The position numbers were made by a program, and so were the translations under genes. A stretch of 63,613 bases of DNA, the filler included, from Reclinomonas americana ATCC 50394 (lineage: Eukaryota), in the NCBI GenBank assembly GCA_048213135.1. It is 22 parts of 22 records of this genome, joined end to end, with 100 filler letters (N's around TTAATTAATTAA, not from the genome) between each part and the next. Parts side by side here need not be neighbours in the genome. Positions count along the whole stretch, not along the records: positions 2,070 to 3,801 come from AFZH01018558.1; positions 3,902 to 5,914 come from AFZH01018559.1; 20 more parts are not named here. The stretch is one strand, 5' to 3'. The notes below the pieces were generated by a model. That model was given only the letters and a program-made list of their open reading frames with translations, was not told where the DNA came from and ran no database searches. This document shows positions 378-63,613 of the stretch, in pieces (position 1 is the stretch's first letter; every line of letters starts with the position of its first letter).

Positions 378-3300
378 TACGAGGGCGAATTCCGCTTCGG
401 CAAGCCTGACGGGTGAGCATCCACACACGTCCCACTTCTTATTACTTTCCTCACTCTCCTACCATCCACCTCCACACACCCCAACAGCTACGGAGTGGTA
501 CGTGACGTCATGTTTCCCTCCCATCACCTCAATCCACGCCTCATAATATCTTCGTGCTGCTGCAGTACACTTGGCCATCTGGCAGGTGCGTCTCTCCGCC
601 AGAATTGCTCTCGTTCACGATTGTAATCCCCCTTGCTTCATCTCCGCAGCCGGTACGAGGGCGAGTGGCGAGAGGGACAGCTCAGCGGCAAAGTTGAGTT
701 TATTCTTTCCCCCTCTCGTGACCTGTGCATTGCTCATTCTTGTGCACGTGCAGGGTATGAGCCGCCACGATGAATCTGTCAGCATGTCTTTTACTCACTT
801 GGCGTGCTCGTGTTCATTCGTACGCAGGAATCGTTGCGTGTTTATTGCAGCCTCTCATTCCTGTCAGAATATCCTGCTGAACCATACACACGTACAGCAA
901 TCATACAGCGACGGATCTCGTTACGAGATAGGTATTCGTGCTATCCCACTCGTCTCCTGACATTGTGTGCTTATCTCGCATCCTTCTTTCGTGCCAACAC
1001 GCGACGTATTCGAACGACAAGAGGAATGGCTGGGGTGTCGTTGCGTCTTTTCTGGCACTCTCTCCCGTTCCTGTCCCACATTGTCTCATCCTGTGCGTCG
1101 CAGTGTTGCGTTGCTGTCGTCTTCGCTCTTGCATTCCTCACACCACGCTGATGTGCGAGCTCTGGTAGATTTTGGAGCCGAGGGCGACGTCTACGAGTTT
1201 CGTCCGATAGTCATGTCACTTTCTTCGTTTCCTTTTCGCTCACTTGATTCGCAGAGGCGAGTGGGTCGATGATTCGCGCGAAGGACACGGAAAGTCGCGT
1301 CATCACTTCACATCGCAGCTTCGGTCGAATCATGTACTAACGGCGATGGTTTGTGCAGGCACACGTGGCCATCTGGAGCGTACTACGACGGCGAGTGGAA
1401 AGCCAATGTGCGCCACGGCAAGTTGAGTGACGGAGACGCACAGGGATGCTTCTTTTCCTTTCTCTCTCTCACGCTTCTATTTTGCCTCCCCTCTCCTCTC
1501 CCTCTGCAGCGGCGTTCAAGTCATGGCCGACGGCACCAAATTCGTCTGCGAGTTCCGCAGCGACATGCGTGAGGGTTTCGGCACCATGTACATGCCGAAT
1601 GGCGACATTTACGAGGGAGAATGGCACAGTTCTGTTGGTGAACGAGTACGCACCTCACCTTGATCAATCTCACTATTCCGCAGATGACAAGAAGCACGGC
1701 TTTGGTGTGTACATTGCCGCCAATCAGTACCGCTTCGAGGGCAGGTGGGTGAATGGCCGGCGCGAGGGCAAAGGCGTTATGATTGCCGCCGACGGCCGCA
1801 CGTACTCGTGTGGTGAGTGAGGACATGGAGCTACTCGTCGCACCTCCCTTTCTTCATCACTTAATCCCACTCGCGTGCAGAGTACAAGGATGACATGCGT
1901 GAAGGTGGGCGAGAGTTGCTGATATCGCTCTATGAGGTCGCTCGTCGATTCTCATCGCTGTACACGCTCNNNNNNNNNNNNNNNNNNNNNNNNNNNNNNN
2001 NNNNNNNNNNNNNTTAATTAATTAANNNNNNNNNNNNNNNNNNNNNNNNNNNNNNNNNNNNNNNNNNNNCCTTCCCCTTAACCACCTTCCCCCCCTCCCC
2101 TTCCCCTCTCCCCTCTCCCGCCTCCCTTCCCCTCTCCCCTCTCCCCTTTACCCCTTCCCTTCCCCTCTCCCCTTCCCCTTTACCCCTTCCCCTTTACCTC
2201 CTTCCCCTTTACCCCTTCCCCTTAACCACCTTCCCCTTTACCCACTGTGTTTATCCCATTCAGGCTACGGCACGTATCGAGGACCTGACGGTTAGTCAAC
2301 AGCGCAGCAAGTCGACTGTGGGTGAGCTGCTCTGCTGACCCTCGTTTGTCACACAGGAGAGACATTTGAAGGGCACTTTGTCAACGATCTGCGGCAAGGT
2401 GTGATGAAATCACCCAGACCTGCATCCTCTTTCTCTCTTCTCATCTTTTGGTAGGATACGGCACGTACCGCGATCCGCGCGTGTCCACCTACGAGGGTGA
2501 ATGGCTGGCGAACAAGCGGCATGGTGCGTCAGCGCCGCTCTCTCAGATGCCTCTCATACCACACATTCACTATCTCTCCGCGCAGGTCAAGGGACCGAGC
2601 GCTGGGTCGACGGTCGTGTCTACCAAGGTGTGTCTTTCTGTCTCTCTGATGTAATCGAACTGTGACCTGAAATGTTGATTGTATGGAACAGGCACCTTCC
2701 GACAAGACAAGGCAGACGGGGGCGGCAAGTACACAGCTCCCAATGGTGTGCTGCTCACTCATTGATACGCACGCACGCCCTTCACTTGCACTGATGTGTG
2801 CATACAAATCAGGCGACGTGTACGACGGCCTGTGGAAGAACGGTCTGCAACACGGTCCCGGAATCTTCCAGTGGGGCAATGGCGAGAAGTACTCGGTTCG
2901 TCGTTTCTGGCCAACTCTTCCGGCGCTGGTGTTACTCGTGGCTCACTTGCTCTCTTTTGCACAGGGTGTTGCGTTGCACTCAACTTGTTGATCCACGTCG
3001 GGTGTCATTCTGTTCAAATATGTTGCGGTGCAGGAATGGGCCAACGGCAAGTTCTCTGGCTACGGAAGGTCGGTTGGCATTGTCGTCAGTCTCTTTCCCC
3101 AAACATGGACTGATGTGCATACCATGCAGACACGAGTACGCCAATGGCGACGTGTACGAGGGCGACTGGAAGGATGGGCGAGAGCACGGACAGTTGCGTG
3201 AAGTGGTTACTAGTTGTAGCACAATGAATGTGCTGACGTGTGATGCAGGGGCACGTACACGTTTGCCGACGGTCGCAAGTATGTTGGCGAGTACGTGGAC

Positions 3301-3532
3301 GGTGTGCGCCACGGATCGGGATCGTTGCGTGCTGCAGGCTGGAGTTGTCGTTATGCGAGTGTTTTTCTCACATCCTTTATCGTGGTGCAGATGTGCGTGC
3401 TTCTCATGTGTGTTTGCGAGTTTGTGAGCGTTGACTGACGCGTGTCTGTGTGTGTCTGTGCGTGTCGTGATTCTATGTGCATGGATATTGGTGCCTGTTC
3501 ATTTTCATGTGCTCCTTGGTGTTTGTAATCGC

Positions 3533-3602
<70 letters not shown>

Positions 3603-3713
3603 GTATTTCGTGTGTTCTCTGTGGATGCCTTCGGTGTCGTTATTCTGTGCATTGATTTTGATGGCTGTTCTTTTGCATGCGCGTCTTGGTGTATGTATTC
3701 GCGCATGTGTGTG

Positions 3714-3786
<73 letters not shown>

Positions 3787-5874
3787 TCTGTGTGTGTGTG
3801 TNNNNNNNNNNNNNNNNNNNNNNNNNNNNNNNNNNNNNNNNNNNNTTAATTAATTAANNNNNNNNNNNNNNNNNNNNNNNNNNNNNNNNNNNNNNNNNNN
3901 NTGTGTGTGTGTGTGTGCTTGTGTATTCTCTGTGGTGTCGTTGGTTGTGCACTTGTGTGCGATATGCTGCGTAATCGCGGCCACACTTTGGTTTCCTTTC
4001 CCTATCTGCGCTTCTCTCCTTGCCATGTCTATCGGCTCTCTTTCTGCTCCCTCCAACAGACGCTTGGCCGAATGGTGCGCTGCGACACATCGTGCGCCCA
4101 CGCCCTTGTGTGTATCTCTCTCTCACACCTACCATCAACAGGAAACGAGTACTCTGGTGGCTGGGTCAATGGCGTGCGCGAGGGACTGGGCACGGTGAGT
4201 GGCGTTGTAAATGTCGAGCATGTCTGTCATGTGCTCACTCATGTGGCTCCACAGTTCCGCTGGGCCTCCGGTGCGCTTTTCTTGGACTCCTCGTTCGGAC
4301 GTTGCTCGTATTTCTCATTGTAGCTTCACAGGCGACGTGTACGAGGGTGGCTGGGTGCAGGGCATGAAGTGCGGTCGCGGAGAGGTGATTCTTGCGTGTC
4401 GGCCTCCCATGCGTAGAAAACCTGCTGACTTGCTTTCGCACTCGCAGCAAGTATACGCCTCTGGCGAAACTTACATTGTACGTCACTGTTTAGATCTACC
4501 ATGGTTGCCTGTTGATGTCATTGTTTCTCACTTTGTACTGTGAATTGCAGGGTGTGAATATGACCTCTAAATACGCTCCTTGCATTGTGTCACTCACTCG
4601 TTGATCGTCTGTGCAGGGTTTGACTGCTCTCATCTGCATGTTCTAACTTTCATCTATTCTAACAATCTCTTCTTGTTGCAGCGAACATTTTAATGACAAG
4701 CGCGAAGGTGTGTTGGTCGATGCGTGCGTGCTCCCCCGCGTTCCGTTTCACTCATCAAGCGTTTGCAGGAAAGGGAGTGTGCGTAGTTTGTCAGTCTTTG
4801 CACACAAGTGGTAGCTTTCAACTCACATCTGCATGCTTTCCTGCTGTGCCTGCTACGGAAACTGCAGCTGTGAGTTGTCTTCTGCACTGTACCTATGCAT
4901 GCCAATCATGTCGCTCATGAGTACCTCTCCTCCCCTCGCAGATGTGAGTTTGTTGGCATTCGCCTCTCTCCTGTTGTTGCTACTCACACCTATTCGTGCA
5001 CTTGGATAGACTTGGGCCAATGGCGCTTGGTTGCGTTTCTGAGATTCGCTTCGTTGCTCGCCGCCCACCTGCTCACTGCGTCTGTTTCAATCTGCAGGTA
5101 CGACGGCGAGTGGAAGGTCTGTTGACGCCGCATTCGTTACATTTCGATGTGATATCCTGTCCTCACTGATCTGTCTCTTTGCGCAGGCTGGCATGCAACA
5201 TGGGTGCGTGATGCACGGTGTTTCATTGTGACTCGCGTAATCTAATCTCTGCCGTGACGAGCAGCAAGGGCACTCGACGATATGCCGATGGCTCGCGGTA
5301 CGTGTGGATTGCTCGCTTCCTTTTTCTGTATCTCTGCTTGCTCTGACCATTCATGGTGCACGCAGATACCAGGGTGAGTCATCGTGGTGGAAAGGGCTGA
5401 CTTGCTTGTTGTGTTTCCGACACCCCTTTTCCTCAGGCGAGTTCGTGGCGGATCGCAAGGAGGGCTTTGGCGAGTACGTGTGGCCGAACGGCAACTCGTA
5501 CATGGTTTGCGTTGGATTCTGAATCCGGTCCATTGACTCCCTCTCACAAATGTGATTGTGAACAACAGGGCGAGTGGCTGGATGACATGCGAAATGGAGG
5601 TGCGTGTGCTTGAGTGTCTACGCGTGTGTTGCGCATGCATCATGAGTGCCTGCGAGTGCATTTCTGGCTTCTTGTTTGTCTGCTTCATATTCTGCCGTTG
5701 CTGATACTGACGTTCTCTGTTGTGTGCTTGCACAGAGGGAACATTCATCTGGTAACGCGCGCCCTCCAAGCTGAGTACTCTCTGGCCGTGTCGCTTAATT
5801 TGTGTTTCTCCACAGGGCCGAAACCGGCGAAACGTACAGCGGTTTGTGGAGAAATGACAAGAAGGAGGGCTATG
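378..5874 (+). CDS. MORN-repeat protein, partial at both ends; about 46 exons, about 520 aa, about 22 repeats
   Basis: Manual splicing gives continuous MORN repeats: YEGEFRFGKPDGYGVYTWPSGSRYEGEWREGQLSGKGIQSYSDGSRYEATYSNDKRNGWGVYFGAEGDVYEGEWVDDSREGHGKHTWPSGAYYDGEW ... ETGETYSGLWRNDKKEGYG. Phase is kept across the spacers at 1970 and 3802. Microexons are at 754, 828-832, 1104, 2965-2967, 3391-3392, 4551, 4617, 4868-4869, 4942-4943 and 5366-5373. Confidence 0.93.
1970..2069. other. Artificial scaffold spacer (44 N + TTAATTAATTAA + 44 N); first of 21
   Basis: Identical 100-nt spacers start at 1970, 3802, 5915, 13549, 18828, 20276, 21688, 22987, 27113, 28917, 32504, 35995, 38886, 41476, 43488, 45360, 50528, 52349, 57396, 59416 and 60632. 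The 12-mer gives stops in all six frames. Many spacers abut microsatellites. Confidence 0.98.
3533..3801. repeat. Intronic (TTG)n and (TG)n microsatellites
   Basis: (TTG)n at about 3533-3601 and (TG)n at about 3706-3801, inside a MORN intron. They produce the spurious polyQ/L/C ORFs. Confidence 0.95.
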
Positions 5875-6018
5875 GTGCGTGCGTGTGTGTGCTTCCTCGT
5901 GCATTAATGCATTCNNNNNNNNNNNNNNNNNNNNNNNNNNNNNNNNNNNNNNNNNNNNTTAATTAATTAANNNNNNNNNNNNNNNNNNNNNNNNNNNNNN
6001 NNNNNNNNNNNNNNACAG

Positions 6019-9000
6019 GCGAAGCTTCGGCTCGATGATAGTGCACTGGGTGATAGTGCATATAACAGCGCCAGCCAGGAGGTGAGGGTGTGATAGACAT
6101 GAGTGAGTGTCTGTCTCCCTCTGAAATCGGATTGCTCAAACAACAACGGTCACGCGCAGGTGTTGCGATTCGCGCAGAGCGATGGTGGCAACAGCACCCG
6201 CATTCTTCTCGTGGAGGGTCCGCGGGGGAGTGGCAAGACTTCTTTACTGCGCGAGTGCGCCTCGACATTGGCGCAGTATGTGCTGGACGGCACCGACTAT
6301 ATGCTGCCACTGTACGTCAACTTGACTGACACACTGCTGCACCGCGAGTCGGCAAGTTACGACTTGGTGGTGCACCTGGTGCAGCAGTTGCATCCTGGAA
6401 TTTCTGAGCTCGGCTTGATCCAAGTTCTTCGACATATGCGCATTGCTCTGTTCATTGACGGACTGGATAGCAGTGCTGCATATCAGCTTCAAGCCCCGCT
6501 GGTTGACCGCTTTCAGGTTCGTCTGACGCCGTGCATGCTTGCGCCCGGCCTCTCTGGCCTCACGAACCATTCTTTGCAGCTCGCCCACTACCACAACTTG
6601 CGCTTGATCATTGCGACGCGGCATGAGGTCCTCCAGCTCATGCATGTCAGCGGCGAACGTGTCGCGTACACGCGTTTGCTGGCGCCCTTCGACCTGGCGA
6701 GCAACTCGTACCAGCCGCAAAACATCCAAGTGCAACACCTTTTGCCGCCATCACTGCCCTCGATTGAGGCCTACCTTGGCGAGGAGCTGTACCAGGCGGC
6801 CGTGAAACGGCATGACGTGCATCTGCTGCGCTCGCTCTCCATCTTGCACCTGCTGCGACTGCTGGGTCCGTTGTGCGTCGCGCACCTCTCATCCGTGGAA
6901 TTGTTGCGAATGTGGCTGCTCTACTGCTCGGCCACGGAACCATCCGACCGTCTTGCACTTGGTTTGCGCTGTGTGCAGCGACTGGCGAGAGGATATAGAG
7001 CGCAAGGCGTGGTTTGCGGCGACCTTGGCGTGGTCGACCTGTTGATTGCTCACGGTGACGATGTTGATGACGAACCTGATGAGGCGGAGACGGAGGTCGA
7101 GCTCACCACCCTCGACGGCTTGCGCTTGGCGGTCATGCACATGCCCCTCCTGTCAAATCTGGTGGATACTCATGGCCAGGCGCTGCCTCAATGGGGCTTC
7201 CCTTCTCTCCATTGCGTGGAAATGGCCGCGGACCCGCTTCTCTGTGCGGATTTCAATAGGCAAGTCCGCGCTACCACTGCCGTCATCTTGTTTGGTGATC
7301 TGATTCTGGGTGGTGTACGCACATGCTTTCAGAGACCTCGTGTCGCTGGAGCATCAGCGCAGTCAGGATGCCGCCAGTTGGTACCTCATGTCACGGTTTG
7401 TTTCGCAACTGGCCGTTCATGCGTATGAAATTTGCTGACTAGAGCATCTTGTGCCTTGGTCGCAGGGGCTCGGCTGAGATTGTTACCTTGCGCGCGGCCT
7501 TGAATGCAGGACTGCGACCGGCGCTGGTTGCACTCCTGCGCAAGGAGATGCGCCGCTTCAAAGCAGCTGTGCAAGAACGCTGTGCTTCCACCGGCGAGCC
7601 AGACTTTGATGCGCGGAAAGCATGTTTCCTTGGTGGTGTGTGTGTAGACACTTTCAACGCGAAAGCACTTGATACAGCAACAAAGACTGCAATTGAGCGC
7701 GCGGAAGCCGAAGGAGTTTCTTTTCCCCTTGTGGAGCAAGTTGACCTCGATGCGTGGAGGTTCGCGTATGGAATTGGTGTGAGTGTCTCTTGTGCTCGCT
7801 GCGCTGACTTGCAGGTGATGCAGATATTGCTGGTATTCTCCAGGCAGCCAAGCTAAGCGCGGAAAACCGCCACGCGAGAGTTTCCTTGGCAACTGCGCCT
7901 CAGCGACTGCCTGTCGCACTCTCTGCTGTTTGTACGAGAACCCAGACGATGAGGACACTGTGGTGTCGTTCGACTCGGGCAAGATTATCAGCATCTTGGA
8001 ATTCGTAGCATACCGGTGCAGCATCAACCCTGCCGATGTCGCTGCTGCGGAGGTGTGGTCGCTGTCAACAGCACTGCCCCCTGACCGAGCGAAAGTTTTT
8101 TGGGATGCCGAAAACAGCAAGGATCGATACGCCATTCCGCTGTGCGACGACCGCGGGTTGTTGGTTGCGTTTCCGTTCCTCTGTTCTCTTTGCTGTCCCT
8201 GCGTAGGTTGTCTCACGTTGTTTGCTCGCAACAGGAGCTGCTGAAAAGAATCCGCGCTGTGAAGAACGACGTGGTCCACCGCGGAGCTGCTGGAACAGAG
8301 GAGGCCGTGTTTGCTCAGGCTATTGCTGAAATGCGGCTGGCGATGGACGCTGTCACTCGCCGACTTCGCGATGTGTACAACATGTCGGAGTCCATGTGTG
8401 CGGCTCTGCAGATTGACTTTGATACGCTCAGTGTGCCAGGTGTGTGAATATTTGGCGTTTGCATGTCAAGGGTGCATCTGTTGACCTGACCATCCTTGCA
8501 GCCGGTGGCGATGGTATGGAGGTGGTCGACGATCGCGCCACGTTGCTACGATCAGTCGCCACTCAGTGCGCCATGTACGAAGCGTTTGTGCCGTCGATTG
8601 TCGTCCCGCTCGACTGCACCCCGCAGCCGAATACGTCGGCAGTCAAACCGCAACCGGTACAGCAACAGGTGTGTGAAGAAAGAGTATTCCCTGGTGCTTG
8701 TCCCTGTCGCAGCGAACTCACTCGTTAACCAGATTCTCGACTTTTGTGCAACGCGACGTATCGGTGCAGGCGCAACACAGGTCGTGTTTGTGGTGGGACC
8801 CGTCGGCAGCGGCAAGACCTGCGCCATGGTGGATCTCGCGCTGAACTACAGCGCAGCCGCAGTCAACAGCACGGTGCAACCACTGCCTCTCCTCATCAAT
8901 CTGGCCGGCGTGCGTATCAAGCATCTCCGCGACCTCACTGTCGAAGGCCTTGTGCGCCTGTGGTTCCAGCAGCTTTCGGTGTCGACCATGGCCACTGCCA

Positions 9001-12000
9001 GTGCAGTCGCACGACTGTGTCGCCGCCCTCTGTTGCTTATGCTGGACGGTTTGCACGTACTAGCCGATGTGTCTGAAGCAAAGTTCTCTTCTCGCCTCGT
9101 TGCGTGTCCGTCTCGCCAGCAGTTAAAATGTGGTCGTCCGCTGTTTTGCTCATTGACATGCAGGTGCGAGACTTGGGCAATTACCCCAAGACTAATGTCG
9201 TCGTGTGCGTGCGCTCCGAGGCTCTGCGACCCGTGTCGAAGGTGCTCCTGGGCACGGATAGTCCCACAGCCGGTGGCGCCGCTGTTCTCGCCCTCACCGG
9301 CTTCAGTGACTCCGCGATTCACTTCTTCATCGAGCGATTTGTCAGCGAGTTGGCTGACGAAGCGCGCTCATACTCGACAGCCATGCAGATTGCCGCGTCA
9401 CAGGTAGCTGATATAGACCGGCCAATCGCGACGCTGCAGCCACGATTGCGCGACCTCATCGAAGCGCTGGGCTTGGATGCAGTGGACGGCATGGGACCTG
9501 ACGACGAGACGTGCCGCCGAGTGCGTGAAGAGGTGTGGGACAGCGCTCAGCGAGTGCCTGCCCTCCGTGAGCTAGCGCGTGTCCCGTCGTTCCTGCCACT
9601 GCTGTGGACGTGGCCACAAGTCGCTCAGCGAATCGCCGAATTGAACCAAAAAGGTGGGCGGCAGCTTTACACATTGGCGGCAACGCTGGCCAAGGTGCTG
9701 CGCGAGCGCTCGCTGGGAGTGCGTGATGTTGCGCACAACCGCGATGACGGTTATTATGACCACCTTGCGGGATGGATGCGTGAGGCCGATCAGATCCGTG
9801 TGCTGGAACGACTGGCCGTGGAGGCCTATCTTGCACAGAGTGACAGCATCAACGTGGCGGGGGAGAGTTGGCAGTTCGCCGTGGACATTCTGCAGCGGAG
9901 CGCTCCCACTGTGCTGTTGAGCGATGACTTTTCGAGCGCGCGCTTTGCTCATGTGCTTCTGCGTGATCACTACTTGGCGCGACAATTGCAGCGGTTGGTC
10001 GCAGTGCCGGTAGGGGATGAGCGCGAGCTGGAGACAGCACTGCGTGGCCACTTCCTCGGCACGTGCTACTTGTCTGAGCGCAACGACCACACGTTGCTGG
10101 AGATGCTGGCGGCCGCCGCTCGCTCAGACGCCAGAGTGCTGGACTGCCTGCTGAATCGTGTGTTGCGACTGCATCACGCAGTGCATGAGTGGGACGCGGC
10201 AGATGGTGTGCCAACGAGCAGTCGGCCGTGGGTGAACTGTGCCACCTCGAATGCTGCCACGATTCTCTGCCATGCTGGCGTGTCGTTCTCGGGTCTCGAC
10301 TTGCGCTCTGCTCACTTGGCGTACGCCGACTTGACCAATGTTGCGTGTTTGTCAGCTGCACCTGTGCGTACACTCTTTTTCACTCACTCTTTGCGTGTAC
10401 GCGTGTGTGCAGGTTGTGATGCACGGTACACTGCTGGATGGCGCGAATATGACGGGGGCGAGGTTGCACGGTGCCTTTATCGACGGGGCGTCGTTGCGCG
10501 AAACGATGATGTTCAGCGTTTCGTTTGGCGCACCTCCGACCCAACAGGAAACTGCGGCCAAGCAAGCTGCGCCTGACAACCGCCAGGCCGGACCGCAAGT
10601 ACAACTGGAACTCCTCGATCCCGTGATGAACACGGTCGCCACATCGCGCAATGGACTGCTGTACTCTGTTGGCTGCATGGACGGTTCGCTGGTTATGGTG
10701 GAGGATCGGGGTGCGCGACGGACGCGGTACAATCACATGGCCTTGTCGCCAGTCATGTCGATCACCGTCTCTGCCGACTCGCGTCGCATCTGTTGCGGCA
10801 ACCTCAATGGCACGCTGACGATTGTCGACTACGACGAGGGCAGCGGCGCGTGGCGTCGCTCGTCAACCATTTCTGTCTCGGACCATTGCATTCCGGCTGT
10901 CGCCTTCCTGAACGACGGCGGGGAGGAGCAGTCGGTGGTGGCGGGAACTTGGGATGGGCGCGTGTGTGAGTGGCCGGTGCATCCACCTGCAGATGCGGTG
11001 ATGCGGGACGGTGCTGCCGTCGTGCAACCAATCGATGTGTTGCTGGAGCGGCAGCCGACGTTGCTGCTGCCAGAGTTCTTCCGCACCGTGGATGAGCAGC
11101 CGCCTGGTCGGATTGAAGACTCGATCCTGACGGTGGTGAAACGTGTGCGCGGTTTCACGCCACACCGCTCTGCCGTGTTGACGCTCACGGCGCGTCGTGT
11201 CCGCACGCCGTCGACAAACTACGAAGAAGTTGTCGCCTGCACGCGTGAAGACAATGTGTACTTTTTCCAGCGGCAATACAGCGATGACCAGCAAGTACGA
11301 CTGCCGTGGACTGCGCGACGCCTCATGCCACGACTGTACGGATTGAGTACCGAGCCGCCACACCTGGCGCGTGTGTACGACACGCAGAGCGTGGCTCTGT
11401 CGCCCAACGGTTGCTGGCTGGCCACCGGCCTCGCCTCGGCCACCATTCAGTTGGTGAACATGGCGGCGGGGCGTGGAACGCTGACGCGCAACTTGGTCGG
11501 ACATCGTGCGCCGGTGCGCTGCCTGGTTTTCTCGCACGACAGCAAGTTTTTGGCGAGTGGCGGCGATGACTTGAGCATTTTGGTGTGGGCTGTCGACGCC
11601 GACGCCGAGGTGCCGGTGGCGACGGTGATCCACCGTGTGGAGCGGGCGCACGAATTCCCCATCTCGACCCTGTGCTTTGTGCAGGGCGAGTGTGCGGTGC
11701 TGTCGCTCTCACGTGAGGAGGCTCACCCGCGGCTGCAGCGGTGGACGTTCCAGCCCGACGAACGTCTGGTTCGCGGTCAGTTCCTCGGCCAGTCGGCGTC
11801 ATCCATGGGGGCAAGTCCGCATGTCATGACGCCGCGATTCGTGGCCATTGGTGGTGTTGCAGGCGCAACAGTGCGCGTGGTAACTGGCGGCGACGACGGT
11901 ACAGTCGTGCTGTGGGAGAGAGAGTTGGGTGGACCGGCGGCCGCCTTGCCAACCATTCGTGCCACCTTTACGCCACCTGCAACTCGTTTCGGTGGTCGCA

Positions 12001-24982: not shown

Positions 24983-25981
24983 ATGGCATTCCTGTTTGCC
25001 GAAGCCCGCCGGCTTTTCAATGCCGGCGACTACACTGCGGCCGCCCCACTGCTCTCCCAATGCATCCGCGACCTTATCAAACTCAACAAGAATGGCGAGG
25101 AAGGAGGAGGAGGAGTGCGCGTACTCGAGGCCGCGCACGCCCTCGCCGCCTGCATGGCCAACACCAACGATCACGAGCGTGCTCTCCAGCTCCTCTCCGA
25201 GGTCCTTGCGCGTCGCCGGCTGCTGCTTGGCGACCACCATCGCGACACGTTGCTGTCGGCCTCCAGTGTCGGCGCCACTCTACGCGCACTTGGTCGCGCG
25301 ACAGAGGCCGTTGCGGTGCTGCAGGAGACGCTGGAGAGGCAGAGGAGGGAGTTGTCGGCGGACGACGAGCAGACGTTGCGGACGCAGCAGTGCTTGGCGG
25401 TGGCGTTGAGTGAGTGTGGAGAGGTGGAGGAGGCGGTGCGAGTGGGACGGGATCTGCTGCCGCGGCATCGGCGTGTGCTGGGCGAGGATCACGCGCATAC
25501 GCTAATGAGTGCGGTGAATCTGGCGGGGTGTGTGGCGAGGGTGGGTGAGGTGGTGGAGGCGCAGGCAATGTATGAGGAGGCGCTGATGAGGGGCAGGCGT
25601 GTGCTCGGTGAGGGGCATGAGTGGACGCGGCGCACTGTGTTGCTGGAGAATGGTGAGTTGTCTTGCTGGTTGCGCTCTCCTGTGTGTCGCTCACCACGTG
25701 TGTTGGCAGTGAGGACAGTGTCGTCGAGTGTCGCGGTGCAGACGGAGGAGGAGGAGCGAGAGGAGCGGGAGGATGTGACGCAGGTGCTGCTTCGCACGCA
25801 GCGTGAGCTGGAGGAGCAGCGGGCGAGGACGCACGAGTGGCAGCAGAGGGCGACGCAGCATGCGCAGGAGTTGGAGGCGCACCGTCGATTGCGGCACGAG
25901 AGCACGCCGGCGGGGGAGGAGGAGGAGCCGCAGCAGAGGCCGCGTAGTGATCGGCAGCGACTGGAGGCGGCGTATGCGTAG
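24983..25981 (+). CDS. TPR protein (kinesin-light-chain/TPR_12-like 42-aa repeats) with a coiled-coil tail
   Basis: Repeats RRLLLGDHHRDTLLSASSVG, RRELSADDEQTLRTQQCLA, RRVLGEDHAHTLMSAVNLA and RRVLGEGHEWT. Likely in-frame intron at 25653-25709. Confidence 0.85.
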   Translation: MAFLFAEARRLFNAGDYTAAAPLLSQCIRDLIKLNKNGEEGGGGVRVLEAAHALAACMANTNDHERALQLLSEVLARRRLLLGDHHRDTLLSASSVGATLRALGRATEAVAVLQETLERQRRELSADDEQTLRTQQCLAVALSECGEVEEAVRVGRDLLPRHRRVLGEDHAHTLMSAVNLAGCVARVGEVVEAQAMYEEALMRGRRVLGEGHEWTRRTVLLENGELSCWLRSPVCRSPRVLAVRTVSSSVAVQTEEEEREEREDVTQVLLRTQRELEEQRARTHEWQQRATQHAQELEAHRRLRHESTPAGEEEEPQQRPRSDRQRLEAAYA

Positions 25982-39521: not shown

Positions 39522-40598
39522 TCACAGATGCAATTCACGATCGACGAAACAGCGGTGCACCACAACCTCGGCCTCCTCGACGATGAAGCAGCGCAGCACC
39601 AATTCTGGCAGGCATCGCGACTCCGACTCTTCCTCCTCCTGTCGCTGCATCTCTTGCACAGCGTGCATGGCCTCACGTGCGCAGTCGAGCTCGCATCGCG
39701 CCAGAACGCAAGGCGTGTACAACACGTAAATCGTCTCCAGGCCGCCGCAGACAATGCACTGACCGTCGGGCGTGATGGCGACACAGTGCACCTCTTCATC
39801 GTGCAACACCAACTGCCGCACTTCTTTCCCACTGGCCAGTGACCACACACGTATTGTCGAGTCGCCACTGGCACTGACAATGTGCTGACCATCGGGAGTG
39901 ACAGCAACAGACGTCACTCTATGGGCGTGTCCCTCCAATCGGCGCACCTCCTCACCACTCTCGATCGACCACACTCGCACTGTGCAGTCAGCTCCTCCGC
40001 TCACAATGTGCTGGCCATCGGGAGTGACGGCGACGGACCACACCACGTCCTGGTGCCCGTTCAACTGCAGCACATCTTCTCCACTCACCACGTACCACAC
40101 GCGCACGGTGCAATTGTCACCTCCACTGACGACGTGCTGACCATCGGGCGTGAGGGCGACGCATCGCACCCAGTTGGTGTGTCCCCCGTAGCGCAGCGCA
40201 TCCTTGCCGGTCTTGAGCGCCCGCACACGCACCGTCCTGTCGTTGCTTCCGCTCACAACGTAGTGCCCGTCGGGAGTGATGGCGACAGATGACACTGCCC
40301 AGGTGTGCCCGTCCACGCGGCGCACCTGCTCTCCACTCGCCATTGACCATACGCGCACTGTCTTGTCCCAGCTGCCACTGACTATGTGCCGGCAGTCGGG
40401 AGTGAAGGCCACAGACTCCACTCTCGCCGAGTGGCCCTGCAACTGGAGCACTTCGCGCCCACTCGCCAGTGACCACACGCGAACTGTTTTGTCCACACTG
40501 CCACTCACGATGTGGCGGCCGTCGGGGGAGATGGCCACTGAAAGGATCAAGCCGGTGTGGCCAGTCAAGAGGGTGGTGAGGAAGAGAGTGTGTGACAT
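39522..40598 (-). CDS. Intronless WD40 protein, 7 highly similar repeats plus a conserved tail of about 60 aa (358 aa)
   Basis: ATG at 40598 (MSHTLFLTTLLTGHTG...). Repeat consensus GHxxxVxSVAxTPDGxHIVSGSxDxTVRVWSLASG. Tail LARCELDCAREAM...SRCLPELVLRCFIVEEAEVVVHRC...LHL. Confidence 0.93.
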   Translation of the reverse strand: MSHTLFLTTLLTGHTGLILSVAISPDGRHIVSGSVDKTVRVWSLASGREVLQLQGHSARVESVAFTPDCRHIVSGSWDKTVRVWSMASGEQVRRVDGHTWAVSSVAITPDGHYVVSGSNDRTVRVRALKTGKDALRYGGHTNWVRCVALTPDGQHVVSGGDNCTVRVWYVVSGEDVLQLNGHQDVVWSVAVTPDGQHIVSGGADCTVRVWSIESGEEVRRLEGHAHRVTSVAVTPDGQHIVSASGDSTIRVWSLASGKEVRQLVLHDEEVHCVAITPDGQCIVCGGLETIYVLYTPCVLARCELDCAREAMHAVQEMQRQEEEESESRCLPELVLRCFIVEEAEVVVHRCFVDRELHL

Positions 40599-41418
40599 GG
40601 GGGAAAGGGGGAAGGGGGGGAAAAGAGGGGAAGGGGGAGAGAGGGGGAGGGGGGAGAGGGGGGAGGGTGGGAGAGAGGGGAGAGCGGGAGGGAGAGAGGG
40701 AGAGAGGGAGGGTGAGAGGCGAGGAGAGCGGGGGAACACAGGGCGAGAGAGAAAGAAAGACAGAGAGCGACGCGAGAGGGATAGAGGGGGAATAGCAACA
40801 AATTGGTTGGAGGACGCAGTGTCAACGTCGTGCAGCGACCAGAGTGCAAGGCACAGCTAATGTAGGGTGTGATGTGCACTAGAGACGGGCGCGACCAGGT
40901 CAAGAAAAGGCTCGGTGTTGCTGCCAATCTCTTGATCGCGATCGGACTTGGTGAACCTGAAGGCTTTGTGCGCAGCCAGCACCACTCTTCGCGCCCAACT
41001 CAATGCAGCGCAAGTACAACGTTCGCGTCTGCAATCATGCAGCTGCGTTGCTCGCGCTGTGTGGATCGACAGGAGAATTGAGTTTGTTGTTACATCGTCG
41101 AAGGCACCATTGTTGTCGTTGTTTTTGTTGGCATGAGCGGACTTGTCACTGCATTCCGCGGGGGAAGGAAGTAAAAAAAGGGAGGGCGACGCTGAGCTGC
41201 CTCCTGACCACTGGTTGGGAGGTCAACGAACCAATGTACATCAACGAGAAGGGGCCCTCATCACTCACTTTCTCTTTGTCCCCTTCCTCTCTCACTTTCT
41301 TTCTCTCCTTTCCACCCTTTTATCTCACTCTTCCGTCACACTCTTCCGCCACTCTCTCTCTCTCTCTCTCACTCACTCACTCACTCACTCACTCACTCAC
41401 TCACTCACTCACTCACTC

Positions 41419-61329: not shown

Positions 61330-61736
61330 AGCGGTGAAGCGGAAACAAGCTCCGTCTTGCAGCTGTCATTTCATTAGTGTTGCTGCAAGTGTGGAGCGCA
61401 GTTATTTCTCTCGCTGTCTCTCTCCATCTCCACTTTATACTGCTAAGTATCTGACGTTTCTTCTTTTCGATTGCTTGGGGTGTTGCTCCCTCTGACGAGA
61501 CTTGATCTAACGGCGCACATACGTTCTTCCACCACTTCGAATCGGGGCCGCCAACATCGGAATAAACCAGTGTACTCAGCGTCACCGCCTGTCTCTTCTT
61601 GCTTTGTAGCTCTGTAGAACACTCAGTAATGACAAGCTCCGCCTGCCCTGCTCCACGGCCAACGGGATCGCGACACGAGAGCACTGCAGTCCGCGAAGTT
61701 CGTCCTCCGATTGCCTTCTCCTTCTCCCTTCCGCCC

Positions 61737-62856
61737 ATGTCTCACCCCGCCACCCCTCTCCTCTCCAATTGCCTGCGGGGTCACTCCGGCTACGTCTTCT
61801 CTCTCGCCGTCACCCCCGACGGCCGGCAGTGTGTGAGCGCGAGCGGTGACAAGACTGTGCGAGTGTGGTCGCTGGCGAGTGGGCAAGAGATGCATCGACT
61901 GGAGGGGCACACAAGCGAGGTGACAACTGTGGCCATCACCCCCGATGGTCAGCACATCGTGAGCGGGAGTCGTGACACCACAATACGAGTGTGGTCGCTG
62001 GCGAGTGGCGAGGAGGTGCGACAGTTGAAGAGTCACACTGGCTGGGTGCACTCTGTCGCCATCACTCCCGACGGTCGGCATGTGGTGAGCGGGAACGCTG
62101 ACAAGACAGTGCGCGTGTGGTCGACGTCGCTGGAGAGTGGCAAGTACGTTCGACGCTGCGGTGTGAGGGGCACTCTGGCGCTGTGCGCTCTGTCGCTGTT
62201 ACTACCGACAGTGAGCACATTGTCAGTGGCAGCACGGACAAGTCGGTGCGTGTGTGGTCACTGGCGACAGGGAAGCGGGAAGCAGGTGCGACGGTTGCGC
62301 GCGCGGTCACACGGATTGGGTGAACGCTGTCGCCGTCACTTCCGATGGGCGCCTTGTTGTCAGTGGGAGTATGGATGCAACTGTGCGAGTGTGGTCACTG
62401 GCAAGTGGCAAGGAGGTGCGTCGATTGGAGGGGCACACGCACTACGTGTTGTCCGTTGCCGTCACCCCCTCTTGTCAGCACATTGTAAGCGGCAGCGAGG
62501 ATTACACAGTGCGCTTGTGGTCACTGGCGAGTGGCGAGGAGGTGCGACGGCTGGAGGAGCATGCGGGTGGCGTGCTTTCTCTGGCCGTCACTGCCGACGG
62601 TCAGAACATTATGGGTGGCAGTCTTGATAGAACGGTGCGAGTGTGGTCCACGCCCCTCGGTCTCGCCCGCCTGGAGCTCGACAAAGCTCGCGAGGCCTTG
62701 CGTGTTGGGCGAGAGATGCAGCGACGCGAGCGCGGCAGGGGCGAGAAGGATTCGCGATGCTTGCCGGAGATGGTGCTGCGGTGCTTCATTGTCGAGGAGG
62801 CTGAAGTTGTGGTGTACCGATGCCGAGTCGATCCAGCATTGTATCTGTGTTCATGA
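61737..62856 (+). pseudogene. WD40 family paralog, tandem copy 3, frameshifted as assembled
   Basis: ATG at 61737 (MSHPATPLLSNCLRGHSG). Four small insertions (6, 5, 7 and 4 nt) in 62124-62304 give a net +1 shift. Repeats and tail are intact on both sides. Confidence 0.75.
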
Positions 62857-63244
62857 TGCGGTGGTGCAGGAGACTGCAGCTCTGTTTCTTCTCCTTTCCA
62901 GCGTGATCTTCCTCTCTCCACTGTGCAGTGCTGCGTGCTTCATTGTTGACGAGATTGAGCTTGTGGTGCATCAAATCTCTTCCCACAGTGTACGTGCGAA
63001 GTATAGTAGCGGAAAAGGAGGCTACAACCCCGTTTATTTGAAATGAACGTCGCGTTTCTGCTGTGTGTACATAGCTCTGTAGAGAACCAGGTGACGATGC
63101 GCACCGCCACCACATTGCAGTTTGTGTCATGGTCAAAGGAAGTCAAGGAACTGTGACGCAGCGAAGCGTCCTCCCATCTCCTCTATTCTCAAGTTGCGAG
63201 CGCATTCCCCCTTCTCCCCCCTCTCTCCCTTCTCCCTTGCACGC

Positions 63245-63613
63245 ATGTCACACCCCGCTCCCTCTTTCCTGTGTAAGCGCCTGTGGGGCCACTACGGCTA
63301 CGTGTTCTCTGTCGCCTTCACTCCCGACGGTCGTCACCTTGTCAGTGCAGGTAACGATCACGAGGTGCGAGTGTGGTCACTGGTGAGTGGCGAAGAGGTG
63401 CGACAGTTGAAAGGCCACCTTGCTTCGGTGCACTCTGTCGCCATCACTCCCGATGGCGAGCATGTCGTGAGTGGCAGCAGTGACAACACAGTGCGAGTGT
63501 GGTCTCTGACTCGTGGCGGCCAAGTGCGGGTGATGAAGGGACACACTGACATTGTGCGGACTGTCGCCGTCACACCCGACGGGCTGCACGTCGTCAGTGG
63601 GAGTCAGGACAGG
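63245..63613 (+). CDS. WD40 family paralog, tandem copy 4 (runs off the window; absent from the ORF track)
   Basis: MSHPAPSFLCKRLWGHYGYVFSVAFTPDGRHLVSAGNDHEVRVWSLVSGEEVRQLKGHLASVHSVAITPDG..., open to the window end. Confidence 0.9.
   Translation, partial: MSHPAPSFLCKRLWGHYGYVFSVAFTPDGRHLVSAGNDHEVRVWSLVSGEEVRQLKGHLASVHSVAITPDGEHVVSGSSDNTVRVWSLTRGGQVRVMKGHTDIVRTVAVTPDGLHVVSGSQDR

Follow-up and report, generated by a model that had tools for sequence, protein, structure and literature searches.

A glycine codon probably split over three exons, of which two are 1 nt long, in an intron-dense MORN-repeat gene of Reclinomonas americana

INTRODUCTION

How can a coding frame be kept across an interval that begins and ends like an ordinary intron and whose excision as one piece shifts the frame? 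The question is raised by positions 4478–4681 of a stretch of genomic DNA from Reclinomonas americana ATCC 50394 (assembly GCA_048213135.1), which lie within a gene encoding MORN repeats. The window, that is, the whole stretch of 63.6 kb analysed here, consists of 22 contigs of 1.1–7.5 kb joined by 100-nt spacers (44 N + TTAATTAATTAA + 44 N) at positions 1970–2069, 3802–3901, 5915–6014 and 18 further places, and adjoining contigs are not necessarily contiguous in the genome. The MORN-repeat gene extends over the plus strand of the first three contigs (1–1969, 2070–3801 and 3902–5914, hereafter contigs 1, 2 and 3), and all of its features given below lie on that strand. An initial annotation of this DNA had proposed that the interval holds three introns separated by two exons of one nucleotide each, G4551 and G4617, which together with C4682 spell one glycine codon. 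The pattern at 4478–4681 is real and far above chance. Its best explanation, likely as far as the sequence allows one to judge, is three separate GT–AG introns and, between them, two 1-nt exons, both G, that complete a GGC codon.

RESULTS

Layout of the splice signals

The exon upstream of the interval (4448–4477, 30 nt) ends in TAC ATT and encodes repeat positions 16–23 of one MORN unit together with the Tyr-Ile of the next. Intron 1 (4478–4550, 73 nt, GTACGT...TGCAG, phase 0) carries a CTCAC motif with a candidate branch A at 4530 and is followed by the candidate 1-nt exon G4551, which would provide base 1 of the glycine codon. Intron 2 (4552–4616, 65 nt, GTGTGA...TGCAG, phase 1) likewise has CTCAC, with a candidate branch A at 4596, and precedes the second candidate 1-nt exon, G4617, base 2 of the codon. 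Intron 3 (4618–4681, 64 nt, GTTTGA...TGCAG, phase 2) has CTAAC with a candidate branch A at 4662 and leads to a 26-nt exon, CGAACAT... (4682–4707), in which C4682 would be base 3 and GAA CAT TTT follows. All three introns thus begin with GT and end with AG, their candidate branch A residues lie 20, 20 and 19 nt short of the 3′ end, and both G4551 and G4617 stand in the context GCAG-G-GT, with one base between the 3′ and the 5′ splice site. These coordinates, re-read from the sequence and by script, agree with those of the initial annotation, and the branch motif that it had reported is present in each intron. The predicted mRNA, ...TAC ATT GGC GAA CAT..., encodes Tyr-Ile-Gly-Glu-His of a 23-residue MORN unit. 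Excision of 4478–4681 as a whole omits both Gs and gives a frameshift followed by a TAA.

Frame and repeat register

The assignment of the gene to the MORN family is borne out by single-exon translations, which scored 26.2, 41.6 and 26.4 bits against Pfam MORN (PF02493) at a cut-off of 22.5; a Pfam search of a fourth exon (2455–2523) gave no MORN match. The models of the three contigs were obtained with a parser (described below) plus hand curation and partly presuppose a period of 23 residues. They contain 22 complete units, of which 21 are 23 residues long and one is 24. Glycine occupies repeat position 3 in 14/15 units free of disputed exons.

Splice solutions for the interval were enumerated for up to three introns, each no shorter than 40 nt, and only those that were in frame and stop-free were retained. 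With GT–AG introns alone there were 21, and 43 once GC donors were allowed, so that the original statement that no other GT–AG solution restores the frame does not hold. Exactly one of the 21 (and the same number of the 43) keeps both the 23-residue register and the glycine. A hidden Markov model of the repeat, derived from 15 undisputed units, placed all 40 alternative products within about 1 bit and was, as built, poorly discriminating.

Recovery by an independent parser

The parser is a dynamic programme for spliced open reading frames (ORFs) that scores codons by log-odds, applies matrices to donors and acceptors and charges a flat penalty per intron. It is blind to the repeat period and lets codons split over any number of exons. 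When trained on contigs 1 and 2 only (15 introns, 333 codons), it returned the model with G4551 and G4617 at all six penalties between −6 and −16 bits, with exons of 1, 1, 2 and 2 nt. When introns of up to 300 nt were allowed, both G exons were kept at four of six penalties (−6, −10, −14 and −18); at −22 and −26, G4551 was lost together with undisputed exons, and G4617 was still used.

Intron anatomy and splice signals

As a reference we used the 28 undisputed introns of the MORN gene. They have a median length of 64 nt, 26 falling within 55–75 nt and the outliers measuring 88 and 136 nt; the candidate introns of 73, 65 and 64 nt lie inside this usual range. A branch motif 11–26 nt upstream of the acceptor accompanies 20/28 undisputed introns as compared with 28/193 decoy AGs, and the more demanding combination of GCAG with a CTNAY branch A at the same distance is found at 12/28 true acceptors and 2/193 decoys. 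The latter combination is present at each of the acceptors 4550, 4616 and 4681. On the donor side, 20/28 true donors and 13/437 decoy GTs have G at both −1 and +5, as do the donors at 4552 and 4618; all three donors have G at +5 and two of them G at −1. The composition of 4478–4681 is also intron-like, with 39% T as compared with 17% in exons.

The three introns do not resemble one another: local alignment gave scores of 16, 15 and 10, the shuffled null having a mean of 12.2 and a standard deviation of 2.5. Copies of any of them were not found elsewhere in the window. There is therefore no support for their origin from a young introner family or by tandem duplication in the recent past.

Chance expectation

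In 200,000 dinucleotide-preserving shuffles of the interior of the interval, some GT–AG solution leaving 2 nt arose 31,462 times, and GG was left by any canonical route in 303 shuffles. Two 1-nt exons appeared in 619 shuffles, and two 1-nt G exons in a single one. When 19 introns are placed at random in a coding length of 482 nt, the figures for contig 3, 0.71 one-nucleotide exons arise on average and two consecutive ones in 2.4% of trials; random placement of 42 introns in 1,571 nt, the figures for the three contigs, yields at least four one-nucleotide exons in 2.2% of trials. The tiny exons may thus exist largely because of extreme intron density and hot spots for intron positions, with modest extra clustering. 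A scan of both strands of the window for AG-N(1–3)-GT with flanking introns of modal size returned 575 + 445 candidates, among which a strict filter was passed by positions 754, 4551 and 4617 only; the matrices contained those introns, so this result is not independent.

Taken together, the repeat register with its glycine, the independently trained parser, the anatomy of the introns and the shuffle null favour the initially proposed reading, with three introns and two 1-nt exons.

Weighing of the evidence and of other explanations

Several observations speak against this reading or limit its reach. Donor 4478 has T rather than G at −1, and a donor matrix restricted to the intronic positions +3 to +8 fails to separate GTGTGA (4552) and GTTTGA (4618) from decoy GTs, fractions of 0.57 and 0.46 of which score at least as high as these two donors. 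The models of contigs 1 and 2 on which the parser was trained were partly hand-curated. One unit of 24 residues exists, so that length by itself leaves room for an alternative that is one residue longer. A protein search with the read-through translation of 4334–4477 found no homologue, and hence no orthologue or paralogue with which the locus might be compared. The other micro-exons of the gene, described below, have canonical in-frame alternatives, either skipping or one long intron, which makes them weaker parallels. Lastly, the three-intron path and one particular single excision lead to the same mRNA, so that the path itself is read from the splice signals.

This single excision would remove 4479–4680 (202 nt) as a non-canonical TA..CA intron; G4478 and G4681 would then supply the Gs of the codon, and the two AG-G-GT sites inside the interval would be there by coincidence. 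The initial annotation had foreseen that the locus could be read as a TA...CA intron of about 202 nt, and the excision indeed yields an mRNA identical to the three-intron product. Since the retained bases equal the flanking ones, spliced reads would be unable to separate the two paths. The gene, moreover, probably holds at least one intron other than GT–AG (an AT–AC intron at 928–1000), so that splicing in this organism need not be strictly canonical. We nevertheless hold the TA..CA intron to be highly improbable. To our knowledge TA..CA is not a spliceosomal terminal pair; none of the 16 possible single excisions of 202 nt has a known one; and an intron of 202 nt would be the longest among 43 introns of the gene, three times the 64-nt median. 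Two internal AG-G-GT sites at modal spacing were encountered in 1 of 200,000 shuffles, and both sites carry acceptor and donor feature sets that are found at 1% and 3% of decoys, respectively. The single excision of the outer pair, 4478–4681, has the merit of being canonical. It would shift the frame and bring in an early stop, as might be expected of a decaying copy or an unproductive isoform, unless the assembly has lost 2 exonic nt, which is conceivable in a fragmented assembly whose contigs break at microsatellites. Such absence of productive splicing appears very unlikely, because at least 13 downstream and 4 upstream exons on the contig keep a clean MORN frame and consensus, hardly the state of a decaying gene, and because the internal splice signals would once more be coincidences.

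Two further explanations retain a productive mRNA with fewer introns. If donor 4482 (GTCACT) were used, the upstream exon would gain 4 nt and a single 1-nt exon would suffice, with one intron of 130 or 135 nt and the product Tyr-Ile-Val-Arg-Glu-His-Phe in a unit of 24 residues. These are the sole other GT–AG solutions within one residue of the register, one undisputed unit does have 24 residues, and a parser trained on contig 3 picked the G4617 version at the harshest penalty. Donor 4482, though, has C at both −1 and +5 and so fails both donor features; the glycine at position 3, present in 14/15 undisputed units, would be lost; an intron of 130–135 nt would be required; and the independently trained parser never picked this solution, which in any case still includes a 1-nt exon. 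We consider it very unlikely. Less plausible again, to the point of being extremely improbable, is that part of the interval is coding and that a single intron, 4504–4681 or 4540–4681, is removed. Such in-frame, stop-free GT–AG solutions do exist, but they add 9–20 non-MORN residues that break the 23-residue register, they would make coding an interval of intron-like T content, their donors lack G at −1 and +5, their introns would measure 142–178 nt, and the parser never chose them.

Three other candidates were rejected. A stwintron with an internal intron at 4554–4616 and a donor re-formed from 4552 leaves 1 nt, and the frame stays shifted. A +1 ribosomal frameshift following one-step removal would lose the glycine, and no signal supporting it was found. 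Zero-nucleotide ratchet points do not fit sites at each of which one base is retained, between segments of 64–73 nt.

The host gene

The modelled gene comprises 45 exons, 42 introns and 1,571 nt of coding sequence over the three contigs, distributed as 15 exons on contig 1 (378–1915, including the candidate 1-nt exons G754 and T1104), 10 exons on contig 2 (2263–3321, including a candidate 3-nt exon, GGT) and 20 exons with 19 introns and 482 nt of coding sequence on contig 3 (4060–5876). Exons range from 1 to 129 nt and end in any phase. Overall, an intron interrupts the coding sequence every 37 nt on average and, on contig 3, every 25 nt, and across the gene the spacing is roughly one per 25–55 nt. 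Candidate introns reach densities of 4.6, 5.2 and 8.9 per kb on the three MORN contigs as compared with at most 1.5 on the other 19. The 42 introns fall at 22 distinct sites of the 23-residue register; 10 of them lie in or beside the codon for Gly-3, and further clusters occur at repeat positions 12–14, 15–16 and 21. The partial unit of 14 residues that ends contig 2 and that of 7 residues that leads contig 3 nearly fill one repeat, which suggests that these two contigs are true neighbours in the genome. A metagenome scan with a MORN exon retrieved four loci of 37–54% identity, all unrelated MORN genes; one of them belongs to an unrelated organism, is AT-rich and lacks introns. These loci do not bear on the question of splicing.

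The register of the same gene calls for further very small exons. Between 693 and 897, both register-exact GT–AG solutions use the candidate 1-nt exon G754, which in the model is followed by a 5-nt exon (828–832), the introns measuring 61, 73 and 65 nt; skipping both exons, with one intron of 205 nt, stays in frame and shortens the unit by two residues. The candidate 1-nt exon T1104 (interval 1040–1168) would be flanked by two 64-nt introns that both start with GTTGCG, the alternatives being a 6-nt exon with flanking introns of 69 and 59 nt, and a single intron of 134 nt that leaves the unit two residues shorter. The candidate 3-nt exon GGT at 2965–2967 (interval 2896–3033, introns of 69 and 66 nt) would encode the glycine at repeat position 3; the parser included it at the mildest penalty only and elsewhere preferred one intron of 138 nt. 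Another consecutive pair may exist on contig 3, where the candidate 2-nt exons CT (4868–4869) and AT (4942–4943) would complete Val-Tyr of the MORN unit that contains the candidate GGC codon (interval 4769–5029, introns of 89, 72 and 66 nt, two of them with strong GTGAGT donors). This case is ambiguous, since a GT–AG intron of 227 nt (4783–5009) also preserves the 23-residue register, as does a GC–AG intron at 4781–4941 combined with the AT exon. Exons of 8 nt (5366–5373) and 10 nt (488–497 and 4769–4778) were all recovered by the parsers as well.

Two clear MORN exons on contig 1 are separated by 73 nt (928–1000, ATAGGT...CAACAC), and removal of this segment is the sole route found that joins them in register. 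It is probably an AT–AC intron. As its donor does not show the U12-type consensus, it would probably belong to the U2 type.

Other contents of the window

Contig ends often consist of (TG)n or similar microsatellites, for example at 3720–3801. About 20 GTT triplets, which read as poly-Val in one frame, occur at 3540–3600 in the long non-coding stretch downstream of the final exon modelled on contig 2. Searches of the window for Rfam families and for tRNAs gave no match. Elsewhere there are long, intron-poor ORFs with NACHT, WD40, TPR_10/TPR_12 and LRR domains (6103–13184, 15311–16594, 39525–40856, 61566–63613, 24941–25978 and 20596–21664), in sharp contrast to the MORN contigs. A NACHT–WD40 gene stands directly downstream of the MORN array, and one possibility is that the array forms its N-terminal part. 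A protein search with the NACHT ORF at 6103–7425 found no relative, and its protein-cluster (Atlas) matches are generic bacterial STAND clusters. A DENN ORF matched eukaryotic clusters in the Atlas; among the six listed, three occur most often in haptophytes, which is a weak signal.

DISCUSSION

Genes whose coding sequence is divided among mostly very small exons are known from schistosomes, where the exons of micro-exon genes are 6–36 nt long, come in multiples of three and are separated by long introns. The MORN gene of R. americana shares with them the predominance of very small exons and differs in that its exons, of 1–129 nt, end in any phase and its introns measure about 64 nt.

Single 1-nt exons have already been described, and in this respect the novelty suggested by the initial annotation has to be narrowed. 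In the published work as far as it was available to us, 1-nt exons backed by RNA are reported in plant APC11 and VPS55 (PMC8831610), Arabidopsis APC11 (PMC4674806), Zygnema Vps55 (PMC11096116), Fusarium and Coprinopsis. The Fusarium gene CYP621A has one that forms the middle base of a glycine codon in an AGGGT context, lying in an apparent intron of 139 nt where the median is 56 nt (PMC12940212), and 13 one-nucleotide and 57 two-nucleotide exons are listed for Coprinopsis cinerea (PMC12230235). Adjacent micro-exons appear in the plant and Zygnema studies with sizes of 5 and 12 nt (PMC11096116, PMC8831610). Literature searches aimed at adjacent single-base exons and at codons divided among three exons, and others on introners with micro-exons and on recursive splicing, brought to light no case of two 1-nt spliceosomal exons in a row, adjacency among the Coprinopsis exons of up to 3 nt not being covered there. 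Only the back-to-back arrangement thus appears to be new to print. From what these sources describe, the likeness to the R. americana locus is otherwise close: one base stands between AG and GT (with the same AGGGT context in Fusarium CYP621A), that base is required for the frame and for a conserved residue, the flanking introns are short, what looks like a single intron has about double the modal length, and the exons had been overlooked by automatic annotation and aligners. What sets the present case apart is that two such exons would be adjacent, that one codon would have introns in all three phases, that the locus is known from sequence alone and that the host gene holds several more candidate exons of 1–5 nt.

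In mechanism, the arrangement comes nearest to introns that are removed stepwise. In Drosophila recursive splicing, zero-nucleotide ratchet points have been described (bioRxiv 10.1101/006163). As there, a 3′ splice site would abut a 5′ splice site at G4551 and G4617, removal would be stepwise, and the next donor would be used after the preceding step. According to the parts of that report considered here, the ratchet points leave 0 nt and divide very long introns, whereas in R. americana one nucleotide would be kept between segments of about 64 nt, in an order that we infer. Fungal stwintrons are abutting or nested U2-type introns removed by consecutive reactions, and they have been linked to one-nucleotide shifts in intron position (PMC5587772, PMC9024468, PMC12403724). 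The abutting U2-type introns and consecutive splicing reactions would be common to both systems. In a stwintron as described in these sources, however, the internal intron sits within a donor, branch or acceptor signal of the external one and the two are not parted by any exon base, while one base would separate the introns of the MORN gene.

In the simplest account of 4478–4681, the interval would consist of three ordinary short U2-type GT–AG introns, one in each phase (0, 1 and 2) of a single glycine codon. With introns of about 64 nt, splice sites would be paired across each intron, that is, by intron definition. This account draws on what is generally known of the recognition of splice sites. 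At a 1-nt exon, the U1 site of the downstream donor would overlap the AG of the upstream intron, and the introns would then have to leave one after another. Such sequential removal would be formally akin to recursive splicing, with one base left at each step. The tiny exons would be mostly a by-product of extreme local intron density, their positions clustering at the glycine codons of the repeat.

A bolder idea, which we regard as speculative and rather unlikely, is that the spliceosome has no need of an exon between introns, that nests of minimal introns lying 1–3 nt apart are removed in a fixed order, and that introns are gained beside existing junctions at G/G sites. New introns would on this assumption favour G/G junctions already present, for instance via reverse splicing or some other junction-targeted insertion. 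If true, such gain could continue until every phase of one codon holds an intron, and it would make this the most intron-dense coding sequence described, with about one intron per 25 nt.

Should the three introns and two 1-nt exons be confirmed, the locus would represent a limiting case of exon size and intron packing, in which one codon is put together from three exons. It would imply that a spliceosome operating by intron definition handles abutting minimal introns with a single base between them, and it would offer a natural substrate for studying the order in which abutting introns are removed. There is also a consequence for annotation: aligners would call one TA..CA intron here and gene finders would break the gene, so that cases of this kind would be systematically missed. 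The MORN-repeat gene of R. americana, whose 1,571 nt of coding sequence are broken by 42 modelled introns that cluster at glycine codons, appears promising for the study of intron accumulation.

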